This document shows positions 33,021 through 62,364 of a DNA stretch of 64,000 bases, one piece after another; within the stretch, counting starts at the first letter, position 1; every line of letters starts with the position of its first letter. The notes below the pieces were generated by a model that was not told the DNA's origin, did no database searches, and saw only the letters and a program-made list of their open reading frames with translations. A program made the translations under genes and the position numbers. Origin of the DNA: Candidatus Xenobia bacterium (lineage in GTDB: Bacteria > Vulcanimicrobiota > Xenobia > Xenobiales > QWHO01); the NCBI GenBank assembly GCA_045863235.1, contig BTUM01000004.1, forward strand, positions 88,621 to 152,620, in the 5' to 3' direction.

Positions 33021-33023
33021 CGA

Positions 33024-35198: not shown

Positions 35199-35258
35199 GT
35201 CCCCGAACCTCCCTTACCGTCTCGACAAGCATGGATCGCTTCGCGCCACCGCGAAGCC

Positions 35259-47376: not shown

Positions 47377-47452
47377 CGCGCTCGGAGATTCTCGCCGGAG
47401 GGGTGGATTTCCGCCTGGCACGGCCAAGTCGAGAACGGAACTGGCGTTAGAG

Positions 47453-47541: not shown

Positions 47542-49395
47542 ATGCAGCTGCGAGAGAGAGCAAGGTGCGGCTATCCCGATGCGATGGCAGCCCTGGCCGA
47601 GGCCGGGGAGGACCTGAGCTTTCTTTCTGCCGAGCAGCGGGCCTATGGCTGGTGCCACACGTTCCACCCACGGTTGGCCGAGGAGCTGGTCGTGTGCCGG
47701 GCGACCCCGCACTGCCTGGTCGTGAGCTCGCTGAAGCTGGGTCAGCCCCTCGAGCTCGACTCTCGGCTCGCTCCTTCCTTCCTGGAGGCCAGCGCCTGCC
47801 CCGATCCAGAGGTCTCGGCCCGGGCCCTGGAGGCCCTGAAAGCCACCGACCTGGTCGACCTCCTGTGCGACTACGCGCTGTCGAGGGACTGCTCGCCGGC
47901 CGCCAGGGAGGTCTGGGTGGCTTTGGGCTTGCTTCCCAGCGCCCCCCATCGGCGCCAGATCTACCTGATCAGGATGGGAAGGACGGACCTTGCCGAGGAG
48001 CTCGATCCGCAGGGCGAGCACCTGACGCTGGGAGCCCTGGAGCTACGCCCCTCCTGGCGCCTGGCTCTGGCGGCCCATTTGCGCGAGCGCGGCCGGGGCC
48101 ACCTGGTACCCCGCATGCTGGGCATCGTCCGCGAGAGAGTGCAACTCGACGGGCCCATGCTGGCCGAGATGCTACGCCAGGCCCAGTTCGAGGCACTGTG
48201 GACTCTGTGCCCCTTCCTGTCTGCCGAGCGCGCCCGGGAGGTCATCCTGGGACTGGCCGAGAGGGGCTTCGCGGGGGGGGCTGACTTCGCGCAAGCCGTG
48301 GACCTGGCCCGGGTCGAGCCGATCCGGCGGCCTGTCTATCGCACGCGCGGGAAATGGGTGGGCTGGGGCGGGCGCCGCCTGCTGGTCAGCCGCAATCGGA
48401 GCGTGAGAGCCATCGATTGGGAGGAGGATCGCGTCGCCTGGCAGGTGGGAGGGAGTTGTCAGGGTGCGGTGCTCTCGCCGGACGGCAGGTGGGCCGCTCT
48501 TTCGCGCCAGCGGCACTACCATCTGCACGATCACGAGGGCCGAATGGTACACGCGAATCGAGCCGTGATGCCCAGTTTCTCGCCCTGCTCGAATTACTTC
48601 GCTTTTCGCGAGGGGCGCTGGCAGCTCTGGCGCCTCTCCCCGCTCGAGCTGCTCGAGTCATCCCAAAACTGCAAGTTCGAGTGGCTGGAGCCAGGCCAGG
48701 TGATCGTCAGCGAGGTGGGAGGACTGCGCATCCGCGATCTGGCCAGCGGGACCACCCGCCTGGAGCCGCCCCTGGCCAGTGAGCCGAACACCTCCAAGTG
48801 GAGGAGGTCTGCCCGGGGCGCGCGCTGGGTGGCCCGCCGAAACCCGCTGATGGCGTTGAGCACGGGCACCCCCGAAAGCCTGATCGTGGAATCGGACGGA
48901 AGCTGCCAGGTCGTGCCGAGCAGGGTCGTGCTGCTCGACGACGAGCGCGTGCTGTGCACCAAAGACTGGAAGATCTGGGACGGTCGCATGCTGCGGCCGC
49001 TCCCCAGGCCAGAGGCGGCTTCGTTTCAGATCGATCCCCGGGGGGCGCGACTCGTGACCGAGAAGGAAGGCTTCACCGCGCTGGTGCGCCTGGGCGACCG
49101 CCTGCCCTACCGAGAGCTGCCCGGCACTTTTCTCGCGATCCATCCCACCGAGCCTTACCTGGCAACTTTGCTTGAGGGAGAGATCTGCATCTGGCAGGTG
49201 CCCCACGAGGTCGACCTGGGTCCTGCGCTGCTCGAGGACAACGCCGAGCGACTCGAGCAACACCTGCGCCCACTGGCCCTCTTTCTCTTGCACCGACGAT
49301 TCCGCCACGAGGTGGCGCTGGAAGAGGGTCTGGAGCTCTCCCCAGCGCACGAAATCCAACTCGACGACGATGAGGCTCGCGTTTATGGAGGGTAA
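47542..49395 (+). CDS. Hypothetical protein with probable beta-propeller (WD40/PQQ-like) C-terminal region
   Basis: First in-frame ATG (MQLRERARCGYPDAMAALAEAG...) of track ORF 46435..49395. The upstream part of that ORF is antisense to mutS2. The C-terminal half has repeated W/G/S beta-strand-like segments (...VAWQVGGSCQGAVLSPDGRWAAL...). Confidence 0.5.
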   Translation: MQLRERARCGYPDAMAALAEAGEDLSFLSAEQRAYGWCHTFHPRLAEELVVCRATPHCLVVSSLKLGQPLELDSRLAPSFLEASACPDPEVSARALEALKATDLVDLLCDYALSRDCSPAAREVWVALGLLPSAPHRRQIYLIRMGRTDLAEELDPQGEHLTLGALELRPSWRLALAAHLRERGRGHLVPRMLGIVRERVQLDGPMLAEMLRQAQFEALWTLCPFLSAERAREVILGLAERGFAGGADFAQAVDLARVEPIRRPVYRTRGKWVGWGGRRLLVSRNRSVRAIDWEEDRVAWQVGGSCQGAVLSPDGRWAALSRQRHYHLHDHEGRMVHANRAVMPSFSPCSNYFAFREGRWQLWRLSPLELLESSQNCKFEWLEPGQVIVSEVGGLRIRDLASGTTRLEPPLASEPNTSKWRRSARGARWVARRNPLMALSTGTPESLIVESDGSCQVVPSRVVLLDDERVLCTKDWKIWDGRMLRPLPRPEAASFQIDPRGARLVTEKEGFTALVRLGDRLPYRELPGTFLAIHPTEPYLATLLEGEICIWQVPHEVDLGPALLEDNAERLEQHLRPLALFLLHRRFRHEVALEEGLELSPAHEIQLDDDEARVYGG

Positions 49396-49421: not shown

Positions 49422-52049
49422 TCAGGTCTGAGGATCAGCGACCTGGCCACCCTGAAGGCGCCGGTCGATCACGTGCCGCAGCTTGCCGCTGCGCGGGTTG
49501 CGCTCCAGCTCTCCCGGACTGACGACCTCTACCACCAGTTCGGCCAGCAAGCCCTGCTCGAGCCGCTCACCGAGCACAGGCAGGCGCTCGAGCAGCCTTT
49601 CTCGTACCCTCTCACTGGAGGCCGGGCCTTCCACCCGCACCCGCAGCCGATCGAGCAGGTCCCGCTTCTCGGCTACCAGTTGCACGGCGCCCGCCAGGCC
49701 GACCAGAGCTTCGGCCACGTCTTGCCAGGAAGTGTTGGTGCTGGCCAGGCAGAGCAGGTCGTCAGAGCGGCCAAGCAGCTCGAAGCGAGGAGTGGTCCGA
49801 CCGCAGGGGCAGGGCTCTTGCAGCCAGCGGGCTCGATCCCCCAATCGATAGCGAATCAGCGGCATCAACCGGCGCTGCAGGCAGGTGATCACGACCTCTC
49901 CCTCCGGGGCCGGTCTGCCTTGCGCGTCCAGTAGCTCCATCCACACCTGGTCGCTGGCCAGGTGGTGCACCGAGCCCGGGCAATGGGCGCACTGGTAGCC
50001 GATGGGTCCGCCGTCGTTGGCGCCCAGAATCGAGCCCAGCCGGGTCAATCCGAAGCGTTCGCGCAAGAGCTTCTGCTCGCCCGGGGGCAGGGGCTCGCCC
50101 CCGTAGACCACCGTCTTGATGGGGGGGCGAGCCTGGCGCTCGTGGAGGTCGGAGAACAGGCGGGTGAGCTGAGACGAGACCCCCAGCACCACCCCCACTT
50201 CGAAGCGCTCGAAGTGCAGCATCAGGCTCTCGAGGGGGGCCGAGGCGGTGAAGGGGAGGTTGACCACGCCGGCTTCCTCCAGCACTCGGTGGATGCTCAG
50301 GAAACTGCCGTAGAGGTCGCCCGAGAGGAAGAGGTTGGCGCAGCGGTCCCCCGGGCGAACGCCCAGGGCGCGCAGCATCTTGACGCCGGCCAGGACGTCG
50401 GCGCGATAGTCCTCCGGGCTCAAGAAGCAGTACTTGGGGTCGCCGGTGGAGCCGCCGCTGCGCAGCACCACGGCGTCCTTGAGAGGCGCGGTCAAGAGCT
50501 CGGCGGACTGAAGGTGCAGCACCGAGCGCTCCAGCAACGGCTGGCCCTGGAAGTCCTCCGGGAGGCAGACCGGGGTAAGGCGCTCGCGGTAGTAGGGCGA
50601 GCGAGCGCGCACGAACTCGATCAGGTCGAGCAGCCGCTCCCAGCTGATGGCCTCGGCCTCGGCGGCGGGGCGGGTCTCCCAGTCGTGGCTGATGCCCTCG
50701 GGGGCGTCGGCGGTCAAACTCACCCAGCGCACCAGGGGTTGCAGGCCGAGACGGCCGTCGTGGGGCTCGCCGGGCTGCCCCCCTGCCATCTCGCCGAGGC
50801 GGCAGATGCGGGTGGCTCCCGCCGCGGTCAGCAGCCGGCCCAGGTGGCGCGAGCGATAGAGCCCGGCCTCCAGGCCCACGGTCTGAAGGAAGCTGCGCCA
50901 GGGCTCGAGCAGAACCGGCAGCTCGCGCTCGGGTTGCTCCACCGTCTTGATGATCAGCGTGCGGTGCAAGGGCGAGGAGCGAAGCTCGCTCTCGTCGCTC
51001 TCGTAGATCAACGTCCAGGCCAGGGGACGCCTGGAGGTCAGCAGTCGCACCGGTCGCACGGCCTGGTCAAAAAGAGCCATCTGGCGCTCCTTGGTGACCT
51101 CGATGGCGGTATCGAAGGCGGGCTCGGCAGACGGCAGCTCGGCCTCCACCTCCTCCAGCGCCCGGGCCAGCGGCTCGAGCAGCCGCTCGGCGTTCTCGGC
51201 TCCCTCCACGTAGAGCACCTGGGGCGAGGAGCAGGCGTGTTGATCCCACATCGACACGTCGCGGGCCAGGCGGCCCGCCAGCTCGGGCAGATCCTGCCAG
51301 CCCGGGGCGTCGGCGGTGAGCACGGCCAGCGACAGCTTGGGCCCGTAATCCACCACCTCCACGTGGGGATCGACCCCCTGATGGTAGCGGCGCACGGCCT
51401 CCTCGCCCCCGGTGATGACGATGGCGTCACAGCCTGCTTTGAAGAGCGACTCCAGGCTCTCGTCGCCTCCCGACCAGGAGAGCACGGCGGTGGAGCGGGT
51501 CAGCTCGCCATCCTCTTCGAAGGCGGCCAGGCTCTCCACGAAGAGCCGGGCAAACAGCGGGTCACCGCTGGAGGCCTTCAGCAGAGTCACGTTGCCGGTC
51601 AGCAGAGACTCGGCCAGGAGGATGGCGGCGCCCACGAAGACATTGCCCGAGGCCACCGTCAGCACCACCCCGCGGGGACGAGCCCGCAGGTACTCCCCGA
51701 TGCTCTTGCGCGGAGTCCAACGATCGAGCAGGTCAGCCGGCCCCAACTCGCGCTCGATGCGCATCTCCAGGACGTCGCGTCGCAGGGCGTTCCCCATCAT
51801 CGTGAGGGATTGCGCCACCATGGGCCGGGACATGCCCACCAGGTCGGGGATCTCTTGCTCAGCCCGGCGTCGGGGGGGGAACTCGGGGTCGACCCAGGCA
51901 GCTCCGGCCCGATCCAGAATGCGCATGATGCGCCGCACCGAGATGCGCTCGTAGCTCAGGGTGCGCTCGCGAGCCCGGCCCAGCACCTCACGGACCCGCT
52001 CGGCGGTGAGCGGGCCGCTCCAGGTCTCCCCCAGCACGAAGTGGCTCAT
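49422..52049 (-). CDS. Fusion protein: LuxC-type acyl-CoA reductase (N-terminal) + PaaK/F390-synthetase-like adenylate-forming enzyme (C-terminal)
   Basis: ATG at M58 of the track ORF, overlapping the luxE-like stop (ATGA). The N-terminal half matches LuxC hallmarks (VVLTVASGNVFVGAAILLAESLLTGNVTLLKASSGDPLF ... AGCDAIVITGGEEAV; cf. LuxC HLLAGNVPLSG...IKTSSTDPF...DVIVAWGG). The C-terminal half has ...VVLRSGGSTGDPKYCF... and the CPCGR motif, paralogous to 58537..59814. Confidence 0.7.
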   Translation of the reverse strand: MSHFVLGETWSGPLTAERVREVLGRARERTLSYERISVRRIMRILDRAGAAWVDPEFPPRRRAEQEIPDLVGMSRPMVAQSLTMMGNALRRDVLEMRIERELGPADLLDRWTPRKSIGEYLRARPRGVVLTVASGNVFVGAAILLAESLLTGNVTLLKASSGDPLFARLFVESLAAFEEDGELTRSTAVLSWSGGDESLESLFKAGCDAIVITGGEEAVRRYHQGVDPHVEVVDYGPKLSLAVLTADAPGWQDLPELAGRLARDVSMWDQHACSSPQVLYVEGAENAERLLEPLARALEEVEAELPSAEPAFDTAIEVTKERQMALFDQAVRPVRLLTSRRPLAWTLIYESDESELRSSPLHRTLIIKTVEQPERELPVLLEPWRSFLQTVGLEAGLYRSRHLGRLLTAAGATRICRLGEMAGGQPGEPHDGRLGLQPLVRWVSLTADAPEGISHDWETRPAAEAEAISWERLLDLIEFVRARSPYYRERLTPVCLPEDFQGQPLLERSVLHLQSAELLTAPLKDAVVLRSGGSTGDPKYCFLSPEDYRADVLAGVKMLRALGVRPGDRCANLFLSGDLYGSFLSIHRVLEEAGVVNLPFTASAPLESLMLHFERFEVGVVLGVSSQLTRLFSDLHERQARPPIKTVVYGGEPLPPGEQKLLRERFGLTRLGSILGANDGGPIGYQCAHCPGSVHHLASDQVWMELLDAQGRPAPEGEVVITCLQRRLMPLIRYRLGDRARWLQEPCPCGRTTPRFELLGRSDDLLCLASTNTSWQDVAEALVGLAGAVQLVAEKRDLLDRLRVRVEGPASSERVRERLLERLPVLGERLEQGLLAELVVEVVSPGELERNPRSGKLRHVIDRRLQGGQVADPQT

Positions 52050-53131
52050 TCCAGCAGCCTCGCGGCCGCAATGGCGCAGCCGGCGTGCTTGCGCGTGCCG
52101 CCCCGGCCCAGAAAGCGAAGCGCAGGGGCCTGACGCCCGCACGGGCAACCCTCCTCCAGGGCCGCCAGGTCGCTGGTCAGCAGGCTGAGGTTGGGCACAC
52201 TGGTCAGAAACGGGGTGCACAGCTGCAACAGACCTGGCTCACCCGGAGCGAGCGGCCGAAGATCGAGGGGATGACGGATCAGCGCCCGGCAGAACACCGG
52301 AACATGGAAGCGGTGGGCCGGGCACTCGACGTAGGGGGCGCCGTGCTCGACCATGCCATAGTTGTCGCGCTGGCGCTCGGGGGGCACAGCCAGCTTCTGG
52401 CTGACCAGCTGGAGAAACTCCTCGCGAGGGATGGCCTGCTCGGCCTGGCCCTTCCAGCCCCCGCCGGTCAGCACCCAGCTGCCCTCAGCCAGCCTGACCG
52501 GGGCGTGCAGCCGCGTCATCAGACGGTGCAAGAAGGAGGGGAAGCCCACGATGCGCGTGGGGAACGGGCTTTGAGCCAGCCGCACCAGAGCCTCGAGCGC
52601 CCCTTCCTCGTCGAAGAAGAACCCCTCCGGGCCCTTTTGAAGGGCGTAGAACACCTCGGCCTGGCGGGTGAAACGGGTCCAGTTGGAGGAGCTGAAGGCC
52701 GCCCCCGAATCGGGAGCTTCAGCCGGGTCGTAGGAGAAAAGCAGCGAGTTGGTTGTCTCGTCGGGGGCCACCAGCCCCTGGTCGGCAAAGACCGTCTCGA
52801 GCATGGCCTGGGCCCGATCGAGCGAAGCCTGGTCGAAGAAAGTCTGGCTCTTTTGCCCCGAGGTCCCACTGGAGCGAACGTGCAGCACGACCTGGCTCTT
52901 CTCCACGCTGAGGAGCTCGTAGCGCTTGAACACGTTGACGAAGACGAAGGGGGCATCCTCCAGGCGCCCCAGGCGCTGAAAGCCCTGCTGCTCGCAAAAC
53001 CGGCCGAACTCGGGGCAGGAGCGGCGGTGGTGGGCAAACGCCTCCTGCATGGCCTCGTGAAAGAGCAGCTCGCGCTCATCGTCGAGGTCATAAGGGCGAT
53101 CAAGGCGACAGAGGCGGTCGATAGCTTGCAT
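52046..53131 (-). CDS. LuxE-like acyl-protein synthetase
   Basis: 361 aa. Adenylation motif VRSSGTSGQKSQTFF and a LuxE-type architecture. It lies immediately upstream of, and translationally coupled to, the LuxC fusion. Confidence 0.65.
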   Translation of the reverse strand: MQAIDRLCRLDRPYDLDDERELLFHEAMQEAFAHHRRSCPEFGRFCEQQGFQRLGRLEDAPFVFVNVFKRYELLSVEKSQVVLHVRSSGTSGQKSQTFFDQASLDRAQAMLETVFADQGLVAPDETTNSLLFSYDPAEAPDSGAAFSSSNWTRFTRQAEVFYALQKGPEGFFFDEEGALEALVRLAQSPFPTRIVGFPSFLHRLMTRLHAPVRLAEGSWVLTGGGWKGQAEQAIPREEFLQLVSQKLAVPPERQRDNYGMVEHGAPYVECPAHRFHVPVFCRALIRHPLDLRPLAPGEPGLLQLCTPFLTSVPNLSLLTSDLAALEEGCPCGRQAPALRFLGRGGTRKHAGCAIAAARLLE

Positions 53132-53264
53132 CCTGGAGGGCCCCGTTTCTCACCGGCGGCGGCCGGCCCTGCTCTGCGCACTGATATCCTTCTGTCCATA
53201 CTGCGGCAACAATCCTGGGACCAGCCGCGCGTAAACTCAGGGCGGTGCGCAAACAGGAGACCTC

Positions 53265-54827
53265 ATGCTCACGGCAGTCCAGCCCGCTTGCGGGCACAGC
53301 ATAAAACATCGCTACTTCAGCCAGGACCCCCTGACCGAGCAGCTCATGACGACCAGCATGCCTGCCGATGGCGTGTCGCTTGGCCCTGAGAACGCTCGCT
53401 TGAAGGTCGACGACCCCGGTCAGCCGGTGGCTGCCCCGGACGAGAACGGCAACATGCTCTATGTGCCGACCGACCCTCGCTTTGCCCAGGTGCAGACCTT
53501 CGTGGCCGCCGACCGCTCGCTTCGCTTCTTCGAGCGCCACCTGCAGCGCAAGCTCGACTGGGCTTTCGGGCGCGAGCAGATGCTGATCCACCCCCACGCC
53601 GGCAACACCATCAACGCCTTCTACAACCGTCAGGAAGGCTCCATCAACTTCTACACCTTCAACGCCCAGGAGCTGGGCAAGACCATCAACTCCGGACACT
53701 CGGCCGAGATCGTCGCCCACGAGTCGGGCCACGCGCTGCTCGACGGGGTGCGGCCCGAATGGATCAACTGCCTGGAGGACGCCACGGGGGGATTCCACGA
53801 GGCTTTCGGCGACATCCTGGCCTTCCTGGTGGCCCTGGAGGAGCCGCGCAACCTCGACAAGGTGCTGGCCGAGACCGGGGGCGACCTCAAGCGCCCTAAC
53901 TCGGTGGCCCGACTGGCCGAGGAGGTTTCCCGGGCCCTGTGGGACGAGCTCGACATGGAGCGCCCCCACCACGACTACCTGCGCAATGCCAACAACGCGC
54001 TGGTGAACGCTGACCCCACCACCCTGCCCCCCGATCCGCCCAACGAGAGCGAGCTCGGCCGGGCCGTGCACAACTACTCGCGGGTGATGACCGGAGCGGC
54101 TTGGGACGTACTCGATTCGTTCCACCGCCAGTATCAGGCCCAGGGGTTCGGCGTGCGCCAGAGCCTGGAGAAGGCCCGCGAGACGGTGGGAGCGCTGGTC
54201 ATCCGCAGCCTGGACTTCTGCCCGGTGGGTCACTTGCCGTCGTACGGCGACTTCGCCCGGGCTCTGCTCGAGGTGGATCGGCGCGACTTCGACGGCCAGC
54301 ACCGCGAGATGCTCACCAATCTGATGCAGGCCCGCAACATCCACCCGCCGGAGCAGCAACCGGTGCCCGCGCTGACTCTGCCCGAGGACGGCACGACGCC
54401 GTTTGGAGCCCAGCGTTTCCTGGAGCTGCACAGAGACGAGCTGGGCATCGCTCCCGAGGTGCCTCTGACCTTCGAGCGTTCCTACGCCAATGAGCTGGGC
54501 GAGCGGTTCGTCCTCTATCGCTACGATCGCAACGTGGCCGTGCGAGAGGACCTGAGCGCGGTGGCCCAGGGTGGGCTGTTGCTGGTCTTCGATGGGGACG
54601 GGAGCTTGAGCTACCGGCACTTCAACGAGCTGACCCCGGCCGCCGAGGGGCGCCTTCGCGAGGCGGCTCTGTCCCAGCTAGCGGCCGGGCAGATCCGCAC
54701 CGACAGCGTGCTCTCGGGCGAGGTGGACCTGTCTGGCATGCTGCAAGAGGACGGTCAGCCCTACCAGGGCTACCTGTCGGTGGAGCCGCAGGGCACAGTC
54801 ATCAAGGCCAGCCCGGTTCGCGCCTGA
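53265..54827 (+). CDS. Putative zinc metalloprotease (HExxH)
   Basis: 520 aa. The zinc-binding motif is EIVAHESGHALLDG, with a downstream EAFGDILAF as a possible third ligand. Balanced composition, unlike the antisense ORF 53100..54620. No obvious signal peptide. The start could be at MTTSM. Confidence 0.6.
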   Translation: MLTAVQPACGHSIKHRYFSQDPLTEQLMTTSMPADGVSLGPENARLKVDDPGQPVAAPDENGNMLYVPTDPRFAQVQTFVAADRSLRFFERHLQRKLDWAFGREQMLIHPHAGNTINAFYNRQEGSINFYTFNAQELGKTINSGHSAEIVAHESGHALLDGVRPEWINCLEDATGGFHEAFGDILAFLVALEEPRNLDKVLAETGGDLKRPNSVARLAEEVSRALWDELDMERPHHDYLRNANNALVNADPTTLPPDPPNESELGRAVHNYSRVMTGAAWDVLDSFHRQYQAQGFGVRQSLEKARETVGALVIRSLDFCPVGHLPSYGDFARALLEVDRRDFDGQHREMLTNLMQARNIHPPEQQPVPALTLPEDGTTPFGAQRFLELHRDELGIAPEVPLTFERSYANELGERFVLYRYDRNVAVREDLSAVAQGGLLLVFDGDGSLSYRHFNELTPAAEGRLREAALSQLAAGQIRTDSVLSGEVDLSGMLQEDGQPYQGYLSVEPQGTVIKASPVRA

Positions 54828-56019
54828 CCCCGGGCACCTGTTCGCGTGACAGGAGGCCATAGCCCAGTGCAGCCACGCCCAGCGTGGCGCAGCCCAGCCC
54901 CAGCAGCATGGCGCGGGGGCCGACCAGGCCCACCAGGGGAGAGGCCAGCGTCACCCCGAGCGGTGCCGCCAGGCCCACCATGGCGAACAGGCTGGAGAAG
55001 ACGCGACCGTGCATCTGCGGGGGAGTCGTGCGCTGCACCAGGGTGATCACCACGGCGTTGCCGGGCGCGACCCCGAAGCCCGCCAGCGCAGCCAGCAGCA
55101 CGCTCACGGGCAGGTTGGGGGCAACCGACATCAGGGCGAAGGCCGCTCCCAGGAGGCCCATGCCGGCGTAGATCACAGTGGCCGGTCGCAGCCGGCGAGC
55201 CAGGGGAGCGGCGGCCAGAGAGCCCAGCACCATGCCGGCGCCCACTCCGCCCATGAGCCAGCCGAAGCCCTGCGGGCCGGCCCTCAACGCGCGCTCGGAG
55301 AAGACAGGGAAGAGCACCGCAAAGGGCATGGCCAGGAAATTCCCCGCCATGGCGGTCAGAAAGACCAGCCTCAAGAAGCGGCTGCGCAAGAGGTAGCTCA
55401 GTCCCTCGCGGGCCTCGGCCAACAGCTTTCGAAGCGTCAGGGGAGAGGTAGCTCCCGGCTCGGGCCGCCCGCGCATGAAGGCCAGAGCCAGGGCCGAGAC
55501 GACGAAGGAGGCGGCGTCGATGTAGAGGACGTGTACGGGGCTGCTCAACCAGGCCACCAGCAGTCCGGCCAGCACCGGCCCGAACAGGGAAGCCGCCTGG
55601 GCGGTCATCTCGGCGTAGGCGTTGGCCTCGGTCAGGTCGTCCTCCTCCACCAGCCGGGGGATGAGCGATTTCTCGGCCGAGTAGAACATCAGGCTGAGGC
55701 TGGAGACCAGGAAGGTCACGGGAAAGATGATCCAGGTCTGAGCGGTCAGGGGGATGAGCAGCACGAGCAGCCCGCGCAGCAGGTCCACTGCGATCATCAA
55801 GGCCCGGCGCGGGAAGCGGTCGACCACCACTCCGGCCCACCACCCGAAGAGCGCGTTGGGAAGGATCTGGGCCAGGAAGACTCCCCCGGTAAGAGTGGTG
55901 GAGCCGGTGGTGGTCAGCACCAGCCAGGCCAGAGCCACGTAGTTGAGCTGGTTGCCGAGCTGGGAGACCAGCTGGCCGATCCACAAAAGACCGAAATCGC
56001 GCCGCCGCAGCAGGATCAT
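54802..56019 (-). CDS. MFS transporter (EntS/DHA-like exporter)
   Basis: 405 aa with 12 predicted TM segments, including ...VVDRFPRRALMIAVDLLRG.... Its start overlaps the stop of the upstream gene (ATGA). Confidence 0.8.
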   Translation of the reverse strand: MILLRRRDFGLLWIGQLVSQLGNQLNYVALAWLVLTTTGSTTLTGGVFLAQILPNALFGWWAGVVVDRFPRRALMIAVDLLRGLLVLLIPLTAQTWIIFPVTFLVSSLSLMFYSAEKSLIPRLVEEDDLTEANAYAEMTAQAASLFGPVLAGLLVAWLSSPVHVLYIDAASFVVSALALAFMRGRPEPGATSPLTLRKLLAEAREGLSYLLRSRFLRLVFLTAMAGNFLAMPFAVLFPVFSERALRAGPQGFGWLMGGVGAGMVLGSLAAAPLARRLRPATVIYAGMGLLGAAFALMSVAPNLPVSVLLAALAGFGVAPGNAVVITLVQRTTPPQMHGRVFSSLFAMVGLAAPLGVTLASPLVGLVGPRAMLLGLGCATLGVAALGYGLLSREQVPGVRREPGWP

Positions 56020-57146
56020 GGCGAGTGACGGGCGGCGGTGGCGATGAGCTCGGGCCAGCGCGAGAGCAGCTCGAGATGGCGCGCAGCGCCCTCATCCACG
56101 GCCGCCAGGCAGTCCTCTTTCTCCGACTCGATACGGGCCGCCAGGTCGCGCTCGGGGTAGAGCCGGGACAAGAAGGCCGCGAATCGCTCTTGCAGCTCGA
56201 GACGGGGGGCGCGGTCCTCTGCCCGGGGCGCGCTGCCAACCAGGCGGGCCAGCTCCTCGGGACCTTGTGGGCGCTCCTGGCGCACAGCCTGGAACACAGG
56301 CGCGTAGAGGGCGTTGTAGTCGATGGCCCGGGCCAGGCGCCACCAGTAGACGCTGTCGTCGCGGCCAGGGGGATGGCGGTGCTCGAGCACGCGTCCGTGG
56401 GCCCCCAGCGCCCAGCCGGCGCCCAGGGCCAGGGCCACGGGAAGGTTGTCCACGTCGGGGGTCTCCTCGGCCGGGGCCACCGGGAGGTGGCGAAACAGTC
56501 CCCGGTCGGTGCAAAGCCCGGGGTAAACGCTCTGGCCGGGAGCCACCCGAGCCCAGTCCTCCATGCGCGCGGGAGGTGGATGCTTGAGCGCTGCCTTGAC
56601 GGCCGGGTCGGCGAAATCAAGCTCCAGGCCCAGCAAGCGGCCGAGCTCGGCCATCAGCTCGCTCCCCCCGGTCCGATAGATGCGGTCTACATCGCAATCA
56701 CAGTCGCCAAAGTGGACCGTGCCGGCCAGATAGGGAGCCTCGGGACCGGTCAGCAAGGCGACCTCTCGCTCCACCGGGAACCACCAGCCACCCTCGGCCC
56801 GAGCCACCAGCAGCTCGTCGGCATCGCGCCGGCTGAGAGTGGTGGCTCCCAGAGCCGCCCCCACCAGGGCCACCAGGTTGGCCACCTTGCCGTAGTTGGC
56901 CACGGGCCCGGGCTGCAGGCTGGCCGAAAGCGACCCGCCCACCGCCAGGCAGAAATCGAGCAGCCAGGGCAGGGTCAGATGGCGGGCTCGAGGCAGTTCC
57001 CCCACCCGGGCCGCGTTGGGCTCCGGATCGGGGCTGCTGTCGAGCAGCACGAAGGTCAGCTCGGGAAAAGCCTCAAGCTCGGCCGACAGGGGCTCGAGCG
57101 GGCTCTCCCAGGCCCGGTTGGTGGGCACCACCAGAATGTGGCTCAT
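56016..57146 (-). CDS. Hypothetical protein (376 aa)
   Basis: ATG at 57144-57146 (MSHILVVPTNRAWESPLEPL...). The track ORF extends upstream as an Arg/Gly/Pro-rich artefact. It overlaps its neighbours by 4 nt at both ends. No recognisable domain. Confidence 0.5.
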   Translation of the reverse strand: MSHILVVPTNRAWESPLEPLSAELEAFPELTFVLLDSSPDPEPNAARVGELPRARHLTLPWLLDFCLAVGGSLSASLQPGPVANYGKVANLVALVGAALGATTLSRRDADELLVARAEGGWWFPVEREVALLTGPEAPYLAGTVHFGDCDCDVDRIYRTGGSELMAELGRLLGLELDFADPAVKAALKHPPPARMEDWARVAPGQSVYPGLCTDRGLFRHLPVAPAEETPDVDNLPVALALGAGWALGAHGRVLEHRHPPGRDDSVYWWRLARAIDYNALYAPVFQAVRQERPQGPEELARLVGSAPRAEDRAPRLELQERFAAFLSRLYPERDLAARIESEKEDCLAAVDEGAARHLELLSRWPELIATAARHSP

Positions 57147-58540
57147 CCTCGCCGATCCTCCAGCACGAAATCGAGCAGCTCCTGGCCCCAGGGAGAGGCG
57201 ACCTGAATCAGATCGGCTCTCACAGGCTCTCCCAGTCGCTGCATCCGCAAGAGATCCCCCTGGCCGCCCAGCCCCGGGAAGAAGCCGCAGTATCCGAACC
57301 CTCGCTCGCGCAAGAGGTCGATCACCGTGTCGGTGTGGGGGTCGGCCAGCTCCAGGTCGACGAGTTGCACGGGAGCCTGAATCTCGTTGAGGCAGCGCCC
57401 CAGCTCGCGCGGGGTGTTGCGGCCCACCCGCTCGACGTGGAACAGAGCCCGGCGTGAGGCGGCCTGCAACCCCCAGGTCAGGGCTCCCTGGAGTGGAGGC
57501 CGGTTGGAGGCAGGCTCGTGCAGGCGACGCTGCAGGCCCAGCTTCTCCATGGTGCGGGTCAAAATGGCGGCGTAGCCTGGTGGAAGGTGCAGCCGGCTCT
57601 CCTTCTCGGGCGTCAGCGAGCGCACCGCGATCATCAGGCTGCTGGGCTCGGGATGGGTCTCCTCGGGCCCTACCGCCCCCAGCATCAGCGCGCTCTCGCA
57701 AAAGCCAAGATCGAGCACCACCTTCTGGGCGAAGAGGTGGCTGGTCACCGGATCGGCATAGAGCTTTCGCAACTGCCGCAGCCTGGCTTGCTCCACCAGG
57801 AAGCTGACCAGCTGGCGCAAGAGGCCCTGACCTCGGTAACGGGGCACCACCGCTCCCTGGCCCATTTCGTAGATGGGGCGATCGTCGAGCATGCGGACCA
57901 GGGCGGTATGGCCCACCACCTCCCCCGAGTCGGTCACGGCCACGGCCGAGATCAAGCGGCCCTGGCGGTTCATCTCGCGCACCCACTCGGGGCGGTAGAC
58001 GTTCTCATAGCCGGTATAGCTGTAACCATAGGCCTGGTAGAGACAGCGCGAGACTCCCACCGCCTCTTCGGGCTGCACCAGCCGCACGGTGACCGGCTCG
58101 AGTGGCTCCTCGGAGACTTTCTCTTGCTTGCGCACCCGGCTGCTGAAGCGAGCCTTGAGTCGCTTCACCAGGACGATCTCGTTGCCCTGACGACCCCGGT
58201 TGATGAGCCGCACCTCGTCCATCAGGGCCCGCATGATGACCAGCCCCAGCGTGCGCGGATCGGGTCCCGGCTCGAGGCGCGAAAGCTCGTCCGAGTCCAC
58301 CGGCAGATTGCGGTCGGTCAGGCGAATGCTGAGTCCATGCCCCCCCAGCTCGAACTTGATGGTGAAGGTCTGCTCGGGGTCGAGAGCGCGCTGCACCACG
58401 AAAGAGCATGCCTCGTCCACGGCCGCCCGGATGGCCTGGCTCTCGGCCGCGGCAAAGCCCGAGCGCTCGGCGAGCTCGGCTGCGAAGGCGGCTGCGGCGC
58501 CCACGTAGAGGGGATGGGAAGGAAGCTCGAGGCGGCTCAC
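57143..58540 (-). CDS. Two-domain protein: anti-sigma-factor-like histidine-kinase-type ATPase (RsbW-like) + GNAT acetyltransferase
   Basis: GTG start overlapping the PaaK-like stop (GTGA). The N-terminus shows an HATPase_c-like pattern (...CSFVVQRALDPEQTFTIKFELGGHGLSIRLTDRN...GLVIMRALMDEVRL). The C-terminus has the GNAT motif A (VVPRYRGQGLLRQLVSFLVEQAR). Confidence 0.5.
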   Translation of the reverse strand: MSRLELPSHPLYVGAAAAFAAELAERSGFAAAESQAIRAAVDEACSFVVQRALDPEQTFTIKFELGGHGLSIRLTDRNLPVDSDELSRLEPGPDPRTLGLVIMRALMDEVRLINRGRQGNEIVLVKRLKARFSSRVRKQEKVSEEPLEPVTVRLVQPEEAVGVSRCLYQAYGYSYTGYENVYRPEWVREMNRQGRLISAVAVTDSGEVVGHTALVRMLDDRPIYEMGQGAVVPRYRGQGLLRQLVSFLVEQARLRQLRKLYADPVTSHLFAQKVVLDLGFCESALMLGAVGPEETHPEPSSLMIAVRSLTPEKESRLHLPPGYAAILTRTMEKLGLQRRLHEPASNRPPLQGALTWGLQAASRRALFHVERVGRNTPRELGRCLNEIQAPVQLVDLELADPHTDTVIDLLRERGFGYCGFFPGLGGQGDLLRMQRLGEPVRADLIQVASPWGQELLDFVLEDRRG

Positions 58541-59814
58541 AGGCTCTCGTCTCGCACCCGGCGCAGCTTGCCGCTGTGAGCCCGACGCTCGAGCCGATCC
58601 ACGCGCTCCACCCGGACCGGGTGGGTATAGCCCTGGCGCACGTGCTCGGCCAGGTTGGGCTTGCGCTGCAAGAGCAAGGCCACCACCTGCTCTTCGCTCA
58701 CGGGCTGCTCCACCTGGATCAAGAGCAGATCCCGGCCCTCAGGGCGGCGCTTGATCATCGTGAAGCTGGCCACACCTCCCAGGGCCATCCGCACGTCTTC
58801 CCAGGTCACATTCTCGTAGCCGATGCGCAGCACGTCGTCGCCCCGCCCGAGCAGCTCGAATCGAGGCGAGGCCCGACCGCAGGGGCAGTCCCCGGCCACC
58901 CAGCGTCCCAGATCGCCTACCCGGTATCGAATGACCGGCATCAGCAACCGCTCGAGGTTGGTGACCACCAGGTGCCCGGTCACTCCCGGCTCGCGAATGG
59001 GCCGGTCCTCCTCGTCCACCAGCTCCACGATCACCACCCCACCCAGCGCGTGGTGCACCCCCCCCTGGCACGAGGGGCACTGATAGCCGATCATCCCCAC
59101 GTCCACGGCTCCGTAGCCGGCCGTGGCCACCACCTCCAGGCCCAGCCCATCCACCAGCTTCCGGCGATCTTCCGGGAAGAGGTGCTCGGCGGCATAAAAG
59201 AGCTTGTTGACGCGGGTTCGGCCGCTGGCCATCAAGGCCTCTCCCAGGGCCACCATCTGGGTGGCCAGGCCCATCACCACGTTGATGGAGAAGGGCTCGA
59301 GGCAGGCCAGCACCTGCTCACGGGGGGCGTGAAAGGTGAAGGGGAACGAGGTCGCTCCCACCTCCTCCAGACCGCGATGGATGGTCAAGAAACTGGCGTA
59401 GAGCTCGCCCACGGCGAACATGTTGGCGCAGCGGTCCTGGGGACGAAGCCCCGGAGCCCACAGCGTGCGGCCGGTACTGCGCGACAAACGCCGATAGTCG
59501 GCGTGGCTGTAAAGGCTGTACTTCGGTTTGCCGGTGGTGCCCCCGCTCTGGAAGACAACCGCGCGCTCCAGGGGACCGGTCAGCAGGGCTCGAGAGCGGG
59601 GCGGGCCGTGCTCCACCAGGTCCTGGCGGGTGAGGAAGGGCAGCTCCTCCAGGCGACCACTGAGGCGCTCGCGAAAGAAGCTCGCCCGCCGGGCTCGCTG
59701 CAAGAGCTGCCGAAGTCGCGCGGACTCCAGTGCCCCGAGCTGGTCAGCCGAAAGGCCATCCAGCTGATCGAAAGGATGCTCGACCCGGGAAGACATAGCC
59801 CGTAGCATACTCAC
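58537..59814 (-). CDS. Phenylacetate-CoA ligase (PaaK)/F390 synthetase-like adenylate-forming enzyme
   Basis: 425 aa. VVFQSGGTTGKPKYSLYS (P-loop-like AMP motif), ...YGAVDVGMIGYQCPSCQGGVHH... and CPCGRASPRFELLGRGDDV. It is clearly paralogous to the C-terminal half of 49422..52049. Confidence 0.75.
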   Translation of the reverse strand: MSMLRAMSSRVEHPFDQLDGLSADQLGALESARLRQLLQRARRASFFRERLSGRLEELPFLTRQDLVEHGPPRSRALLTGPLERAVVFQSGGTTGKPKYSLYSHADYRRLSRSTGRTLWAPGLRPQDRCANMFAVGELYASFLTIHRGLEEVGATSFPFTFHAPREQVLACLEPFSINVVMGLATQMVALGEALMASGRTRVNKLFYAAEHLFPEDRRKLVDGLGLEVVATAGYGAVDVGMIGYQCPSCQGGVHHALGGVVIVELVDEEDRPIREPGVTGHLVVTNLERLLMPVIRYRVGDLGRWVAGDCPCGRASPRFELLGRGDDVLRIGYENVTWEDVRMALGGVASFTMIKRRPEGRDLLLIQVEQPVSEEQVVALLLQRKPNLAEHVRQGYTHPVRVERVDRLERRAHSGKLRRVRDESL

Positions 59815-59918
59815 ATTCGGCCCTCTGGTCTATGATCGAGGACAGGGAGGGCCATGCAAAGATCTTGCTAAACTGCGCCGAGTACCTTTGGGGCATCCAC
59901 TTCGCTCTGGAGGACCCC

Positions 59919-60938
59919 ATGCAGATCCCGCCCATCGAAACCCGGTGCAACCCGCTGGTCTGTTTCTTGCCCGCTCCGATCCTGGGGCAGCCGTCCTCTG
60001 GAACCATTGCGGGGGACTTGAACGTGCTCAGCCCCGACGTCCTCCAGATGGGCAGCTTCCTCAACGCTCCCGGTGCCCTCCAGCCCGAGCCCCAGATGGG
60101 CGGTTTCCTCAACGCCCTGGCGGCCAACTATGCCCCTCCCCAGGCGCAGGTCATGGCCCTGATACAGGGATTGCTGGCCCTGTGCCAGCTCCTGGCTGGC
60201 TGGCAGGGCTTTGCCGGCGGAGCAACCCCGCCCGGGATCCTCCCATGGCCAACCGGAATGGGCAACGCATGGCCAACCGGGACGGCCAATGGCAACGTCA
60301 GCGCTGGGATCGTGCCGGTGCTTCCCTACGACGGACAGCCCACCGGCGGCGGCATGGACCCCGAGCGCATCCATATGACCCAGGTCTTCGACCGCAAATA
60401 CAATCGTGGGGGCGCTCCTCGCAGCGCCGACTGCGGCCCGACCTCGCTGGCCATGGGGCTGGAAGCTCTGGGCTTGAATCCGCGCGGTTCGGTGCAAGAC
60501 AAGATCGATGCTGCACGCCTGGCAATGTTTCGCGGGGCGGACGCCTCCAGGGACGGATTCGACGTGGCCGGCAACAAGAGCCAGGCTGAGCACGGAACCT
60601 CCACCAACATCAGCGACTGGCGCCGAGGCGCACGCGCCGCCGGAGCCCGCAGCCGGGACGTGCGCAGCGTGGCCGACGTGGCCCGCGAGGTAAGTCAGGG
60701 GCACCCGGTCATGCTGGCCGGTCGCAACGCGGGTAACATTTATGGCCGCGGACACGGGATCTCCTTCAACGGGGGCCACGCCATCCTGGTATCCGGCTAC
60801 GACCGGGCCAGCGGCACGTTCATCCTCAACGATCCGCTCGCCCACGGGGGGCCCATCCGCGTCAATCGGGCCCAGCTGGCAGCTTTCCTCTGGGATGGTG
60901 ACGGGGGAGGCGTGGACGGGATTGCCCTGATGCGCTGA
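59919..60938 (+). CDS. Peptidase C39-like (papain-fold) domain protein with Gly/Pro-rich N-terminal region
   Basis: ATG at 59919 with SD ggagga. The C-terminal domain has the catalytic Cys in RSADCGPTSLAMGLEALG and the His in NGGHAILVSGYD. No ABC-transporter domain is attached. Confidence 0.55.
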   Translation: MQIPPIETRCNPLVCFLPAPILGQPSSGTIAGDLNVLSPDVLQMGSFLNAPGALQPEPQMGGFLNALAANYAPPQAQVMALIQGLLALCQLLAGWQGFAGGATPPGILPWPTGMGNAWPTGTANGNVSAGIVPVLPYDGQPTGGGMDPERIHMTQVFDRKYNRGGAPRSADCGPTSLAMGLEALGLNPRGSVQDKIDAARLAMFRGADASRDGFDVAGNKSQAEHGTSTNISDWRRGARAAGARSRDVRSVADVAREVSQGHPVMLAGRNAGNIYGRGHGISFNGGHAILVSGYDRASGTFILNDPLAHGGPIRVNRAQLAAFLWDGDGGGVDGIALMR

Positions 60939-61092: not shown

Positions 61093-62364
61093 GTGTGCGT
61101 TCATGCCCGCGCAACCACCCGGATGAAAAACTTCCTCTTGACCTGCTCGATGCTGCTCGCGATGGGATGCAGCGGTTCCGAAACCCTGACCGGCGGCCCG
61201 CCCGTAGTGGACAACCTGCCGCCCCAGGCCCTCCTCCCGCCGGCCGCCCCGCTCACCCTGGAGAGCAGGCCCAACCTGGGCCGCATGCCGGTTATCGCGG
61301 AGCTGGGGGAGATTCCACCCGCTCCCTTGCCTCCCAATGCTCCACCGCCGGCGGGAGCCACCTTCACCCCGCTGGGCACTCTCCGTGGAGGCGATTCCGA
61401 GGCCTACGCCATCTCGGCCGATGGCTCAACGCTGACGGGGGCGTCCATCGACCCGGCCGGAAATCGGGACGCGTTCGTCTGGACCAGGGCTTCCGGGATG
61501 CAGGCGCTGCCGAACTCGCCGCGCAAGCCACAGAGCGAAGGCCACGCACTCAACAGCAATGGCAGCAAGGTCGGTGGCCTGGGAATCCTGTTCGACATCC
61601 TGGCGGCTCAGACATGGACCGACCAGGGCGTCTTCACGCTGCCGGGGTCGGTAGCACCCAACCTGCCGCCCCAGGTCGTTTCCGACCTCTCGCTCGACGG
61701 CACCGTGGCCGTGGGAACCGCGGGTACGGGCTTCCTCGGCTATCAAGGCTTTCGCTGGATCCAGGGGGCCCCGCAGCCGCACGGTCTGGGCACGCTGGGA
61801 GCCCCTCCCGGACAGCAGCCCGGCAGCGAGGGACACGGGAGTTCGGGCGACGGCTCCGTGATCACCGGCATTAGCACCAACAAAGCCGGCGGGCTTTCGG
61901 CCTACCGCTGGGTGGCGGGCACCATGTCGGCGCTTCCGACGCTCGGAAACCTCGCCTTTAGCGATGGCTGGGAGGTGTCCGCTGACGGCAGCAGTATCGT
62001 GGGCTGGAGCTCCAATCAGCCCAATCTCGTCCCCGCCCAGGCCACGCTCTGGAATGCCAGCGGGGCGGTCTCGCTGGGCACGCTCGCCGGCTTTGAGTTC
62101 AGCTCACAGGCCTACGGGGCCTCCTCCGATGGCTCGGTCGTCGTGGGCGCGGCCGCCAGTGGTCAGAATTTCCACTCCCAGGCCGCTTTCGTGTGGGACC
62201 AGGCCAACGGCATGCGGCGCCTGCAGGACCTGCTCGGCTCGGCGGTGCCCGCCGGGTGGAACTTGCTCGTCGCCACCGCCGTCTCAGACGACGGCCAGAC
62301 TGTGGCCGGCTTCGGGCTCAACCCGCAGGGCGCGGTGGAGGCCTTCAGCGCTCAGTTGCCCTGA
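61093..62364 (+). CDS. HAF-family extracellular repeat lipoprotein
   Basis: Lipoprotein signal MKNFLLTCSMLLAMGCSG (ATG at 61123; the track start GTG 61093 is also possible). Repeated units resemble the HAF repeat (...AYAISADGSTLTGAS...DAFVWTRASGMQALP..., ...AYGASSDGSVVVGAA...AAFVWDQANGMRRLQDL...). Confidence 0.65.
   Translation: MCVHARATTRMKNFLLTCSMLLAMGCSGSETLTGGPPVVDNLPPQALLPPAAPLTLESRPNLGRMPVIAELGEIPPAPLPPNAPPPAGATFTPLGTLRGGDSEAYAISADGSTLTGASIDPAGNRDAFVWTRASGMQALPNSPRKPQSEGHALNSNGSKVGGLGILFDILAAQTWTDQGVFTLPGSVAPNLPPQVVSDLSLDGTVAVGTAGTGFLGYQGFRWIQGAPQPHGLGTLGAPPGQQPGSEGHGSSGDGSVITGISTNKAGGLSAYRWVAGTMSALPTLGNLAFSDGWEVSADGSSIVGWSSNQPNLVPAQATLWNASGAVSLGTLAGFEFSSQAYGASSDGSVVVGAAASGQNFHSQAAFVWDQANGMRRLQDLLGSAVPAGWNLLVATAVSDDGQTVAGFGLNPQGAVEAFSAQLP

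Follow-up and report, generated by a model that had tools for sequence, protein, structure and literature searches.

What does a bacterium make and export when a PaaK-like ligase, an acetyltransferase with an RsbW-like domain, a 376-aa protein and an MFS pump are encoded in one tight operon, and do the peptidase genes beside that operon take part? These questions are raised by positions 53265–60938 of the window, the whole 64,000-nucleotide stretch of DNA analyzed here. The genes concerned, including the LuxE- and LuxC-like genes beyond the metallopeptidase gene, and their overlaps are as follows.

49422–52049, minus strand: LeupB-like fusion of a LuxC acyl-thioester reductase and a PaaK-like ANL ligase (LuxC::ANL), 875 aa
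52046–52049, minus strand: LuxE/LuxC overlap, ATGA
52046–53131, minus strand: LeupA-like LuxE-family acyl-protein synthetase, 361 aa
53265–54827, plus strand: M4/M36-like gluzincin metallopeptidase, 520 aa, HExxH...ExxxD
54802–56019, minus strand: MFS exporter of the DHA3/MFS_3 type (Pfam MFS_1/MFS_3)
56016–56019, minus strand: DUF6271/MFS overlap, ATGA
56016–57146, minus strand: predicted divergent DUF6271 protein with a GT-A fold like that of GT75, 376 aa
57143–57146, minus strand: HG/DUF6271 overlap, ATGA
57143–58540, minus strand: HG, an RsbW/SpoIIAB-fold domain joined to a LeupD-like module (RsbW::GNAT), 465 aa
58537–58540, minus strand: ligase/HG overlap, GTGA
58537–59814, minus strand: LeupC-like stand-alone PaaK-family (ANL) ligase, 425 aa
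59832–60938, plus strand: Peptidase_C39_2 (papain-like) domain protein, 368 aa

Each of the six gene calls within 53265–60938 is backed by a third-position GC of 0.81–0.88. The four minus-strand genes from 54802 to 59814 are chained by 4-nt start/stop overlaps, and all three junctions of the original prediction (58540/58537, 57146/57143, and 56019/56016) are present in the sequence; the LuxE/LuxC junction is the fourth overlap at the locus. Two minus-strand operons, leupC-like/RsbW::leupD-like/DUF6271/MFS and leupA-like/leupB-like, are thus found, with the plus-strand metalloprotease gene between them. The LuxC reading frame, previously started at 52220, begins at the ATG at 52049, and the ligase may start at Met3 or Met7 instead of the called start. 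Every domain call made earlier was reproduced with Pfam and NCBIfam: PaaK-like AMP-binding, HATPase_c_2 plus GNAT, MFS, C39_2, LuxE, LuxC plus AMP-binding, and a weak M36.

The closest characterized parallel is leupABCD, the operon from which Klebsiella produces leupeptin, a protease inhibitor, and for which Li et al. 2020 (Angew Chem) is reportedly the primary paper. This operon, together with an adjacent MFS transporter gene, occurs in Klebsiella oxytoca/michiganensis, Photorhabdus, and Xenorhabdus (PMC8283571, PMC11480411). A Klebsiella leup locus was recovered from metagenome contigs through an exact match to the published primer leupB_r, and the leupA_f primer lies 1,235 bp away on it, exactly the published amplicon size (PMC8283571 Table 1). 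The recovered 5.8-kb locus reads MFS, LuxE (378 aa), LuxC::AMP (801–803 aa), PaaK-like, and GNAT (305 aa). Against it, the window LuxE is 36% identical to LeupA over its full length (E 8e-73), LuxC::ANL 31% identical to LeupB over residues 92–864 (E 3e-73), and the PaaK-like ligase 33% identical to LeupC over 423 aa (E 4e-43). The GNAT part of HG is 30–31% identical to LeupD in BLASTP (E 1e-12 to 8e-15), and a profile of the HG family aligns LeupD 2–289 with HG 150–453 (hhalign probability 99.5%, E 2.8e-23, 284 columns). By sequence comparison, these four window proteins are homologues of LeupA, LeupB, LeupC, and LeupD. The same five protein types are present at both loci, among them the LuxC::PaaK-like fusion, an MFS protein, and a GNAT followed by the same C-terminal domain. 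They differ in that the window proteins are just 31–36% identical to LeupA–D; in that the genes, rather than forming a single operon with an adjacent MFS gene, are split between two operons in another order, with the MFS gene present; in the additional N-terminal RsbW-fold domain of the LeupD homologue; in the additional DUF6271/GT75-like gene; and in the host, an uncultured member of the Eremiobacterota (Xenobia). The LuxE and LuxC genes, which had been regarded as flanks, instead form the core of the set together with the ligase and the GNAT gene.

Catalytic motifs were compared in five homologues: those of the window, Klebsiella, Salmonella, Kitasatospora, and a relative (L002) whose HG is 41% identical. 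The LuxE-like protein (Pfam LuxE, 3e-30) carries an SSGTSG P-loop and a Cys located 10 residues before its C-terminus (HAGCAIAAA), and SSGTSG and the C-terminal G/S-C-A-x-A-A motif are common to all five. LuxC::ANL combines Pfam LuxC (4e-85) with AMP-binding and AMP-binding_C_2, an architecture identical in all five; in the window protein, the QxACSSPQ motif that holds the catalytic Cys is preserved, as are P-loop and SGK lysine. Across the set, the ACSSPQ Cys and SGK Lys are invariant, and the strict P-loop pattern is found in three of the five, being missing from L002 and Kitasatospora.

The stand-alone ligase also keeps its P-loop (SGGTTGKPK) and its C-terminal SGK (A10) lysine. It matches Pfam AMP-binding, and among solved structures it comes closest to PaaK, AjiA1, and a 'PaaK-like ligase' (6siw). 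Its matches to the NCBIfam DVU_1553/PaaK models fall far under the cut-offs, and the PaaK equivalog level is missed (TIGR02155, 90.5 bits versus a cut-off of 646; NF041878, 107 versus 700); the sequence places it in the PaaK superfamily only. In a neighbor-joining tree of ligase domains, LeupC and LeupB-ANL each form a clade with 100% bootstrap, and the two Eremiobacterota domains lie outside both, the window ligase pairing with the window's own LuxC-fused ANL domain (88%). One-to-one orthology with LeupC and LeupB-ANL is therefore unsupported, and the substrates may differ.

In HG, the RsbW/SpoIIAB fold occupies residues 1–128, GNAT approximately 150–290, and a C-terminal domain 300–465; residues ~150–465 make up a complete LeupD-like module (GNAT plus the family-specific C-terminal domain). 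The original description as an RsbW-like ATPase joined to GNAT is right in both folds. The domain is nevertheless unlikely to be an ATPase, because the ATP-binding N-box Asn and G1 Gly have been lost in the leup-linked clade. It scores under the NCBIfam cut-offs for RsbW/SpoIIAB; the intact N-box Asn and G1 box of RsbW/SpoIIAB anti-sigma factor kinases are absent from it and, unlike those kinases, it is fused to an acetyltransferase.

The 376-aa protein, initially left as hypothetical, can be reassigned. It scores 17.6 bits against Pfam DUF6271 (PF19787), below the gathering cut-off of 25; its relatives at 60% and 45% identity carry PF19787, and with a profile derived from the window protein, 129 clusters are retrieved, 48 of 49 aligned members matching DUF6271. 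We predict that it is a divergent DUF6271 protein with a GT75-like (RGP/UAM/MtdL) GT-A fold, acting as a metal- and NDP-dependent tailoring enzyme. GT75 comprises NDP-pyranose mutases and reversibly glycosylated polypeptides, namely MtdL and plant UAM/RGP (PMC9937993). The hallmarks used were a GT-A fold with extra core and helical domains, DxD plus a His that binds Mn2+, and a catalytic Arg that becomes autoglycosylated. Identity to GT75 is only 12–14%, with no sequence-level match even when the family profile is used, and the window operon is without sugar-nucleotide genes. The last gene of the operon encodes an MFS protein (NCBIfam TIGR00900, 1.5e-73) of the DHA3/MFS_3 type, like EntS, Mef, and Tap, whereas the Klebsiella protein matches MFS_1/Sugar_tr. 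In Klebsiella, leupABCD likewise has an MFS gene as its neighbor (PMC8283571), and the Streptomycetaceae cassettes described below include one.

What the comparisons establish is homology and domain architecture, together with the conservation of catalytic residues and of linkage. From these sequence relationships, we consider it probable that the locus is a leupeptin-type, NRPS-independent small-peptide-aldehyde cluster with its exporter. Because all four leup homologues and an exporter are encoded, a small N-acylated peptide aldehyde is the product most likely made and exported. The expectation that an N-acylated, small peptide-like molecule is synthesized and exported here thus holds good, as the locus encodes functions for acyl/aminoacyl activation, for N-acyl transfer, and for export. 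We infer in which order the steps run, which substrates are used, that the product is an aldehyde, and what DUF6271 and the RsbW-like domain do, the steps for LeupA–D being assigned from homology with leupABCD and from LuxC–LuxE chemistry. The GNAT module would N-acylate an amino acid or peptide with acyl-CoA as donor, and the two PaaK-family ANL units, one stand-alone and one LuxC-fused, would adenylate carboxylates and build up a short peptide by forming its amide bonds. The LuxE-like enzyme would adenylate the C-terminal carboxylate and hold it as a thioester on its own C-terminal Cys, from which the acyl group would pass to the LuxC Cys and, upon NADPH reduction, yield the aldehyde. The GT75-like DUF6271 enzyme would probably add or rearrange an NDP-activated group, possibly for tailoring or self-protection, and the MFS pump would export the product. 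The degenerate RsbW-like domain would probably dock the acetyltransferase to a partner protein rather than serve as a kinase.

Comparison with relatives bears on whether the two operons belong together. The four-gene operon is kept in relatives at 98%, 95%, and 83% identity; at 64% identity, HG-DUF6271-MFS is found without the ligase on a contig that starts inside HG, and at 40% identity, these three genes are rearranged yet linked. Because it is conserved across relatives, the four-gene arrangement is not a chance juxtaposition. Conceivably, this operon is self-contained, its exported product being an N-acyl amino acid or an N-acyl dipeptide acid that may be glycosylated, with LuxE/LuxC separate or optional. 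Indeed, it is intact in the 83% relative, where LuxE/LuxC are absent from the ~8–10 kb of MAG contig fetched on either side, and it may therefore work without the reductase. Consistent with this, HG, DUF6271, and MFS lie together on two further contigs (L033 and L034) with no LuxE/LuxC visible, these contigs being short, and the halves of the window cluster form distinct transcription units, parted by a plus-strand gene. However, MAG contigs are fragmentary, so that genes missing from the vicinity may still be encoded elsewhere in the genome. In L002, moreover, LuxE-LuxC::AMP-PaaK-HG-PTA form one overlapping operon, and the four partners also co-occur in Klebsiella, in Streptomycetaceae cassettes, and on a Salmonella plasmid (LuxE-LuxC::AMP-PaaK plus a GNAT remnant). 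Overall, a self-contained operon appears unlikely. The phosphotransacetylase (PTA) gene of the L002 operon fits a need for acetyl-CoA.

The Streptomycetaceae cassettes lie on three linear plasmids (Kitasatospora sp. NBC_00070, Streptomyces sp. W1SF4, and Streptomyces sp. NBC_01426), each with five genes, ligase-MFS(_3)-GNAT-LuxE-LuxC::ANL, and unrelated flanks; to our knowledge, they are uncharacterized. Their LuxE is 40% and their LuxC::ANL 35% identical to the window proteins. They differ from the window in forming a single operon without DUF6271 or an RsbW-like domain, and their GNAT is barely alignable to HG (BLASTP E 0.07).

A LuxCE-type fatty-acid reductase making fatty aldehydes, alcohols, or N-acyl lipids would account for the Pfam LuxC and LuxE matches and for the PGAP labels on homologues ('acyl-protein synthase' and 'acyl-CoA reductase ... 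bioluminescence'). In luminous bacteria, LuxC–LuxE proceed through adenylation, a thioester on the LuxE C-terminal Cys, transfer to the LuxC Cys, and NADPH reduction to the aldehyde (PMC9157457). Both catalytic cysteines are kept in the window proteins, which presumably act on a peptide or an amino acid instead of myristate. The NCBIfam equivalog cut-offs are missed (LuxC, 130 versus 750 bits; LuxE, 101 versus 550), and the scan of genes between 36973 and 64000 turned up no luxA, luxB, luxD, or luciferase family. Furthermore, similarity to LeupA and LeupB extends over the full length and includes the LuxC::ANL fusion, and we know of no lux operon with that architecture. A fatty-acid reductase is thus very improbable.

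Where a GNAT protein is encoded beside an AMP-forming enzyme, it is often a regulator of the Pat type, with the A10 lysine as its acetylation target. RsbW::GNAT might accordingly control the adjacent ANL enzymes, either as a Pat/AcuA-like protein lysine acetyltransferase or as a partner-switching component. The anti-sigma-factor fold of its N-terminal domain and the A10 lysine of the window ligases are in keeping with this role, as are remoter RsbW::GNAT homologues (28–35% identical) without leup-like neighbors, which also weigh against the leupeptin-type reading. Against it stand the lost kinase residues, the lack of any sigma-factor or STAS partner gene among those called from 36973 to 64000, and the end-to-end homology between the GNAT plus C-terminal module and LeupD, the product of a named leupeptin biosynthesis gene (PMC8283571). 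A purely regulatory protein is very doubtful.

The peptidase genes abut the operon here and in the 95–98% relatives, and the original prediction assigned proteolytic maturation to them. The C39 protein (Pfam C39_2, 1.1e-11), whose N-terminal half is of low complexity, is a soluble protein without the ABC domain of the bacteriocin/RiPP type; its gene lies beside the operon only in the 95–98% relatives (L007 and L008), the linkage being lost at 83% (L004/L009) and absent at 41% identity (L002). The metallopeptidase bears the motifs HESGH...HEAFGD, a weak Pfam M36 match, and no signal peptide obvious by eye; homologues are named M36/gluzincin in the sources. Its gene adjoins the MFS gene in relatives at least 83% identical. 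Orthologues at 71%, 52%, 48%, and 47% identity are never beside leup-like genes: separate contigs carry them in the 64%/71% and 41%/48% relatives (HG/metalloprotease identity), and unrelated genes surround them both on an unassigned contig and in an Armatimonadetes MAG. Both MAGs of the former pair also carry the GNAT gene, and one has the whole leup-like set. Looking for a precursor peptide is not relevant here, because the homologous pathway joins free amino acids through stand-alone ligases and the gaps inside the cluster, of ~130 bp or less, leave no room for a precursor gene. An acylated ribosomal or other peptide matured by the two peptidases before export is therefore extremely unlikely, despite the 133-bp divergent intergenic region shared by metalloprotease and LuxE and a Salmonella plasmid whose leup-like cassette lies ~3 kb from a C39-ABC/HlyD exporter; proteolytic maturation finds no comparative support, and both genes are probably neighbors, not members.

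The leupeptin-type cluster favored here is thus of a known kind, leupABCD, and what is new is the RsbW-like fusion and the DUF6271 gene. In a bolder and rather improbable extension, the product would be a novel type of peptide aldehyde: the DUF6271 enzyme would attach an NDP-derived group, such as a sugar, to give a masked pro-inhibitor for export, and the acetyltransferase step would be gated through the RsbW-like domain, tying synthesis to a partner-switching signal. As GT75 enzymes glycosylate their own arginine guanidinium, an argininal-type side chain could be the DUF6271 target. If true, this would provide a first function for DUF6271 and a new regulatory fusion.

Reading frames in the window, whose G+C content is 66-70%, were picked by third-codon-position GC (0.81-0.88), which gave the following genes around the candidate operon.

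Genes of the locus, called by third-position GC and, where marked P, also by Pfam/NCBIfam
49422-52049, minus: LuxC::AMP-binding fusion (P)
52046-53131, minus: LuxE (P)
53265-54827, plus: 520-aa HExxH protein
54802-56019, minus: MFS transporter (P)
56016-57146, minus: 376-aa protein
57143-58540, minus: HATPase_c_2::GNAT protein, HG (P)
58537-59814, minus: PaaK-like ligase (P)
59832-60938, plus: Peptidase_C39_2 protein (P)
61093-62364, plus: HAF-repeat protein

The original prediction described a four-gene operon chained by 4-nt overlaps. This observation is confirmed, since the start/stop overlaps GTGA, ATGA, and ATGA are all present in the sequence and all of the accompanying domain calls were reproduced with Pfam and NCBIfam; a further ATGA joins LuxE to LuxC. 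At the left edge, a 617-aa plus-strand ORF (47542-49395) with good codon bias, for which no Pfam family was matched, sits between MutS2 and the LuxC fusion and is convergent with the latter. The mechanical ORF of the minus-strand MutS2 (44782 to ~47450) extends to 48021 and is too long; codon bias suggests a true start near 47450. The right edge is followed by the C39_2, HAF-repeat, and GcvT-like genes. The start codons of the divergent ligase and C39_2 genes are 17-35 bp apart (59796-59832), so at least one promoter must fall within coding sequence. Matches in a promoter and terminator scan did not rise above chance level, and an Rfam scan of 44-64 kb of the window returned no matches. Two very large neighbouring minus-strand ORFs (1833 and 729 aa; 27522-35213) have very high third-position GC.

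HG is 100% identical to AMXMBFR33_09220, a Candidatus Xenobia (Eremiobacterota) MAG protein, and its family is rare: 17 matches were returned by a 5.8-billion-protein search, and a search from a 4-sequence alignment found full-length relatives at only four loci among GTDB species representatives. Relatives at 95-98% identity share the window's synteny. The 83% relative keeps PaaK-HG-376aa-MFS and the convergent 520-aa gene, with C39_2 and LuxE/LuxC not found in the 8-10 kb fetched on either side. In a locus whose HG is 41% identical (L002), LuxE (61% identical to its window counterpart), LuxC::AMP (50%), PaaK (57%), HG, and a phosphotransacetylase form, in that order, one overlapping operon. 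LuxE and LuxC, initially regarded as mere flank, thus share an operon with PaaK and HG in L002, and the gene context of the relatives argues that they are functionally linked to the ligase and HG. The L002 phosphotransacetylase (PTA_PTB, E 2.6e-109; 11392-12375) overlaps the end of the HG gene, occupies the place held in the window by the 376-aa and MFS genes, and may serve as an acetyl-CoA source for the GNAT. It was rejected as a counterpart of the 376-aa protein, to which it has no similarity and whose fold is GT-A. TPA assemblies title L007, L009, and L010 (83-95% contigs and the 41% relative) "uncultured Burkholderiales bacterium", probably a taxonomic mislabel.

To our knowledge, ligase-based leupeptin biosynthesis has been described in Gammaproteobacteria only. 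The plasmid gene set described below corresponds to the ligase-based route to leupeptin that Li et al. 2020 reportedly described; the enzymology of that route is not given in the papers citing this study. The Klebsiella cluster, leupABCD, comprises 5,831 bp with an adjoining transporter, and the primers leupA_f and leupB_r are listed for it (PMC8283571). A comparator locus was obtained by exact matching of the leupB_r sequence in metagenome contigs. This search yielded eight Klebsiella-like contigs, seven of which also contain leupA_f; on one of them (L025), leupA_f to leupB_r measures 1,235 bp, equal to the published amplicon size.

Genes of the Klebsiella locus, in order
Gene 1: MFS, 419 aa
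Gene 2: LuxE family, 378 aa, contains leupA_f
Gene 3: LuxC + AMP-binding, 801-803 aa, contains leupB_r
Gene 4: PaaK-like ligase
Gene 5: GNAT, 305 aa

The window proteins align with their Klebsiella partners along their lengths: LuxE is 36% identical to LeupA (E 8e-73), LuxC::AMP 31% identical to LeupB (E 3e-73), the PaaK-like ligase 33% identical to LeupC (E 4e-43), and HG residues 148-286 31% identical to LeupD (E 1e-12). An HG-family profile spans LeupD residues 2-289 (99.5% probability, 284 columns), which indicates that HG is a complete LeupD with an extra N-terminal domain in front. We consider it reasonably likely that 49422-59814 is an NRPS-independent cluster of the leupeptin type, which would make a small N-acylated peptide aldehyde and encodes its exporter. 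Homology, architecture, catalytic residues, and linkage are observed for this locus; what it makes, the sequence of its reactions, and the parts played by the RsbW-like domain and the 376-aa protein are inferred. Compared with leupABCD, the locus differs in gene order and ligase paralogy, and adds an RsbW-fold extension on LeupD and a GT75-like DUF6271 gene, putatively for tailoring.

All five LuxE-like proteins retain the SSGTSG P-loop and, ~10-12 residues before the C-terminus, a Cys; the ACSSPQ cysteine is present in all LuxC domains compared, and the C-terminal S/TGK lysine in all ANL units compared. In the relay from LuxE to LuxC, these LuxE and LuxC cysteines carry the acyl group (PMC9157457). 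The equivalog models for LuxC, LuxE, and PaaK score the window proteins far under their cut-offs, and bioluminescence or phenylacetate enzymes were therefore rejected. In a neighbour-joining tree of ANL domains, with LuxE-like sequences as outgroup, Klebsiella LeupC and the Salmonella and Kitasatospora ligases form one clade (100%), the LuxC-fused ANL domains from the same three sources form another (100%), and the two Eremiobacterota ligase units pair together (88%). Ligase specificity probably evolved independently despite the same architecture, and the peptide made by this locus need not be Leu-Leu-Arg.

With the LuxC::AMP fusion as a tblastn query against plasmids, a five-gene cassette was detected on three Streptomycetaceae plasmids (L020, L035, and L036; Kitasatospora/Streptomyces linear plasmids), with different flanks in each and the order AMP-binding/PaaK-family ligase, MFS, GNAT, acyl-protein synthase, acyl-CoA reductase. 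The same approach located LuxE, LuxC::AMP, and PaaK on a Salmonella IncF plasmid. A caspase-family protease gene is convergent with the cassette in Streptomyces sp. W1SF4, and an 815-aa GT2-type glycosyltransferase follows it in Streptomyces sp. NBC_01426. On the Salmonella enterica conjugative IncF plasmid (L021; CP053580.1, 54892-73914), what comes after the cassette is a truncated remnant of a GNAT, whose tblastn match covers just 67 aa. The region ~3 kb upstream contains several small hypothetical genes as well as an exporter pair, HlyD plus a C39-peptidase ABC protein.

In the Xenobia version, a biosynthetic GNAT is fused to an RsbW-fold domain, a combination that is, as far as we know, without precedent. 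Distant members of the aligned family retain both the GHKL N-box EAxxNV and the D-x-G G1 box; in the leup-linked clade (P0001-P0004), Phe/Tyr replaces the N-box Asn and Asn/Ala replaces the G1 Gly. The RsbW-like domain of HG would be a non-catalytic docking or regulatory domain. A Pat/AcuA-like regulatory acetyltransferase, the first idea for such a fusion, was dropped on the full-length LeupD homology. Distant RsbW::GNAT members (L001, L005, and L006; 28-35% identical), as exemplified by Desulfonatronum sp. SC1, have no leup-like neighbours, so the fusion may have another, ancestral role; the kinase N-box Asn is kept in such members, L006 having His instead.

Only five proteins are close homologues of the 376-aa protein. 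Searching 1.8 billion representatives with a profile yielded 129 clusters, and 48 of the 49 aligned members of its profile family belong to Pfam DUF6271. Across the DUF6271 family, R106, R107, D108, D233, and H250 never vary and D110, H256, and R262 hardly do; mapped by motif position, not superposition, these residues resemble D109-D111 and the Mn2+/diphosphate site H287/R289/H292 of MtdL (PMC9937993). Sequence-level PDB searches (single sequence and profile) linked the protein to no solved structure, and a literature search for DUF6271 found no papers. HG, DUF6271, and MFS_3 also occur together in a 64% relative and, with DUF6271 inverted, in a 40% relative, and this linkage supports a functional tie. 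Elsewhere, DUF6271 is found in other small-molecule-like operons. On Apilactobacillus kunkeei plasmid OX335149.1 (L018), it lies in a biosynthetic-looking operon with ATP-grasp "ddl"-like ligases, a methyltransferase, an aminotransferase, and split transketolase subunits; on a Streptomyces clavuligerus plasmid (L019), it sits in another biosynthetic-looking operon, beside genes for a PhyH dioxygenase, an MBL hydrolase, a GNAT, and an AEC transporter. The Xenobia cluster thus offers a first pathway context for DUF6271, along with a fold-based GT75-like hypothesis.

The 520-aa protein, an M4/M36-like gluzincin (HESGH...HEAFGD), is encoded by a gene convergent with the MFS gene (26-bp overlap) and divergent from LuxE (133-bp gap); a sequence-level PDB search with it gave ACE zinc-site matches only. 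Its 71% orthologue lies in the same MAG as HG-DUF6271-MFS (AB1758 locus tags) on a different contig, its 48% orthologue on another contig of the L002 MAG, and its 47-52% orthologues among unrelated genes in an Armatimonadetes MAG and an unassigned contig. In the C39_2 protein, the Cys/His-type domain is intact and no ABC domain accompanies it; the C39_2 gene adjoins the operon only at ≥95% identity. A leupeptin-cleaving protease has been reported in Photorhabdus; the metalloprotease was rejected as a conserved cluster member analogous to it, the linkage not being conserved. Proteolytic maturation by the flanking peptidases, as originally proposed, finds no evidence, neither linkage being conserved in more distant relatives. 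Both peptidases are treated here, on gene context, as neighbours, with a low probability that either processes or degrades the product.

We know of no NRPS-centred genome mining that would flag ligase-based peptide-aldehyde clusters. At 10 kb, 49422-59814 is a compact target for heterologous expression toward new protease inhibitors. Since a leupeptin-type enzyme set is shared by Streptomycetaceae plasmids and an uncultured phylum (Eremiobacterota, class Xenobia), this biosynthetic logic would be a widespread way of making small peptide aldehydes.
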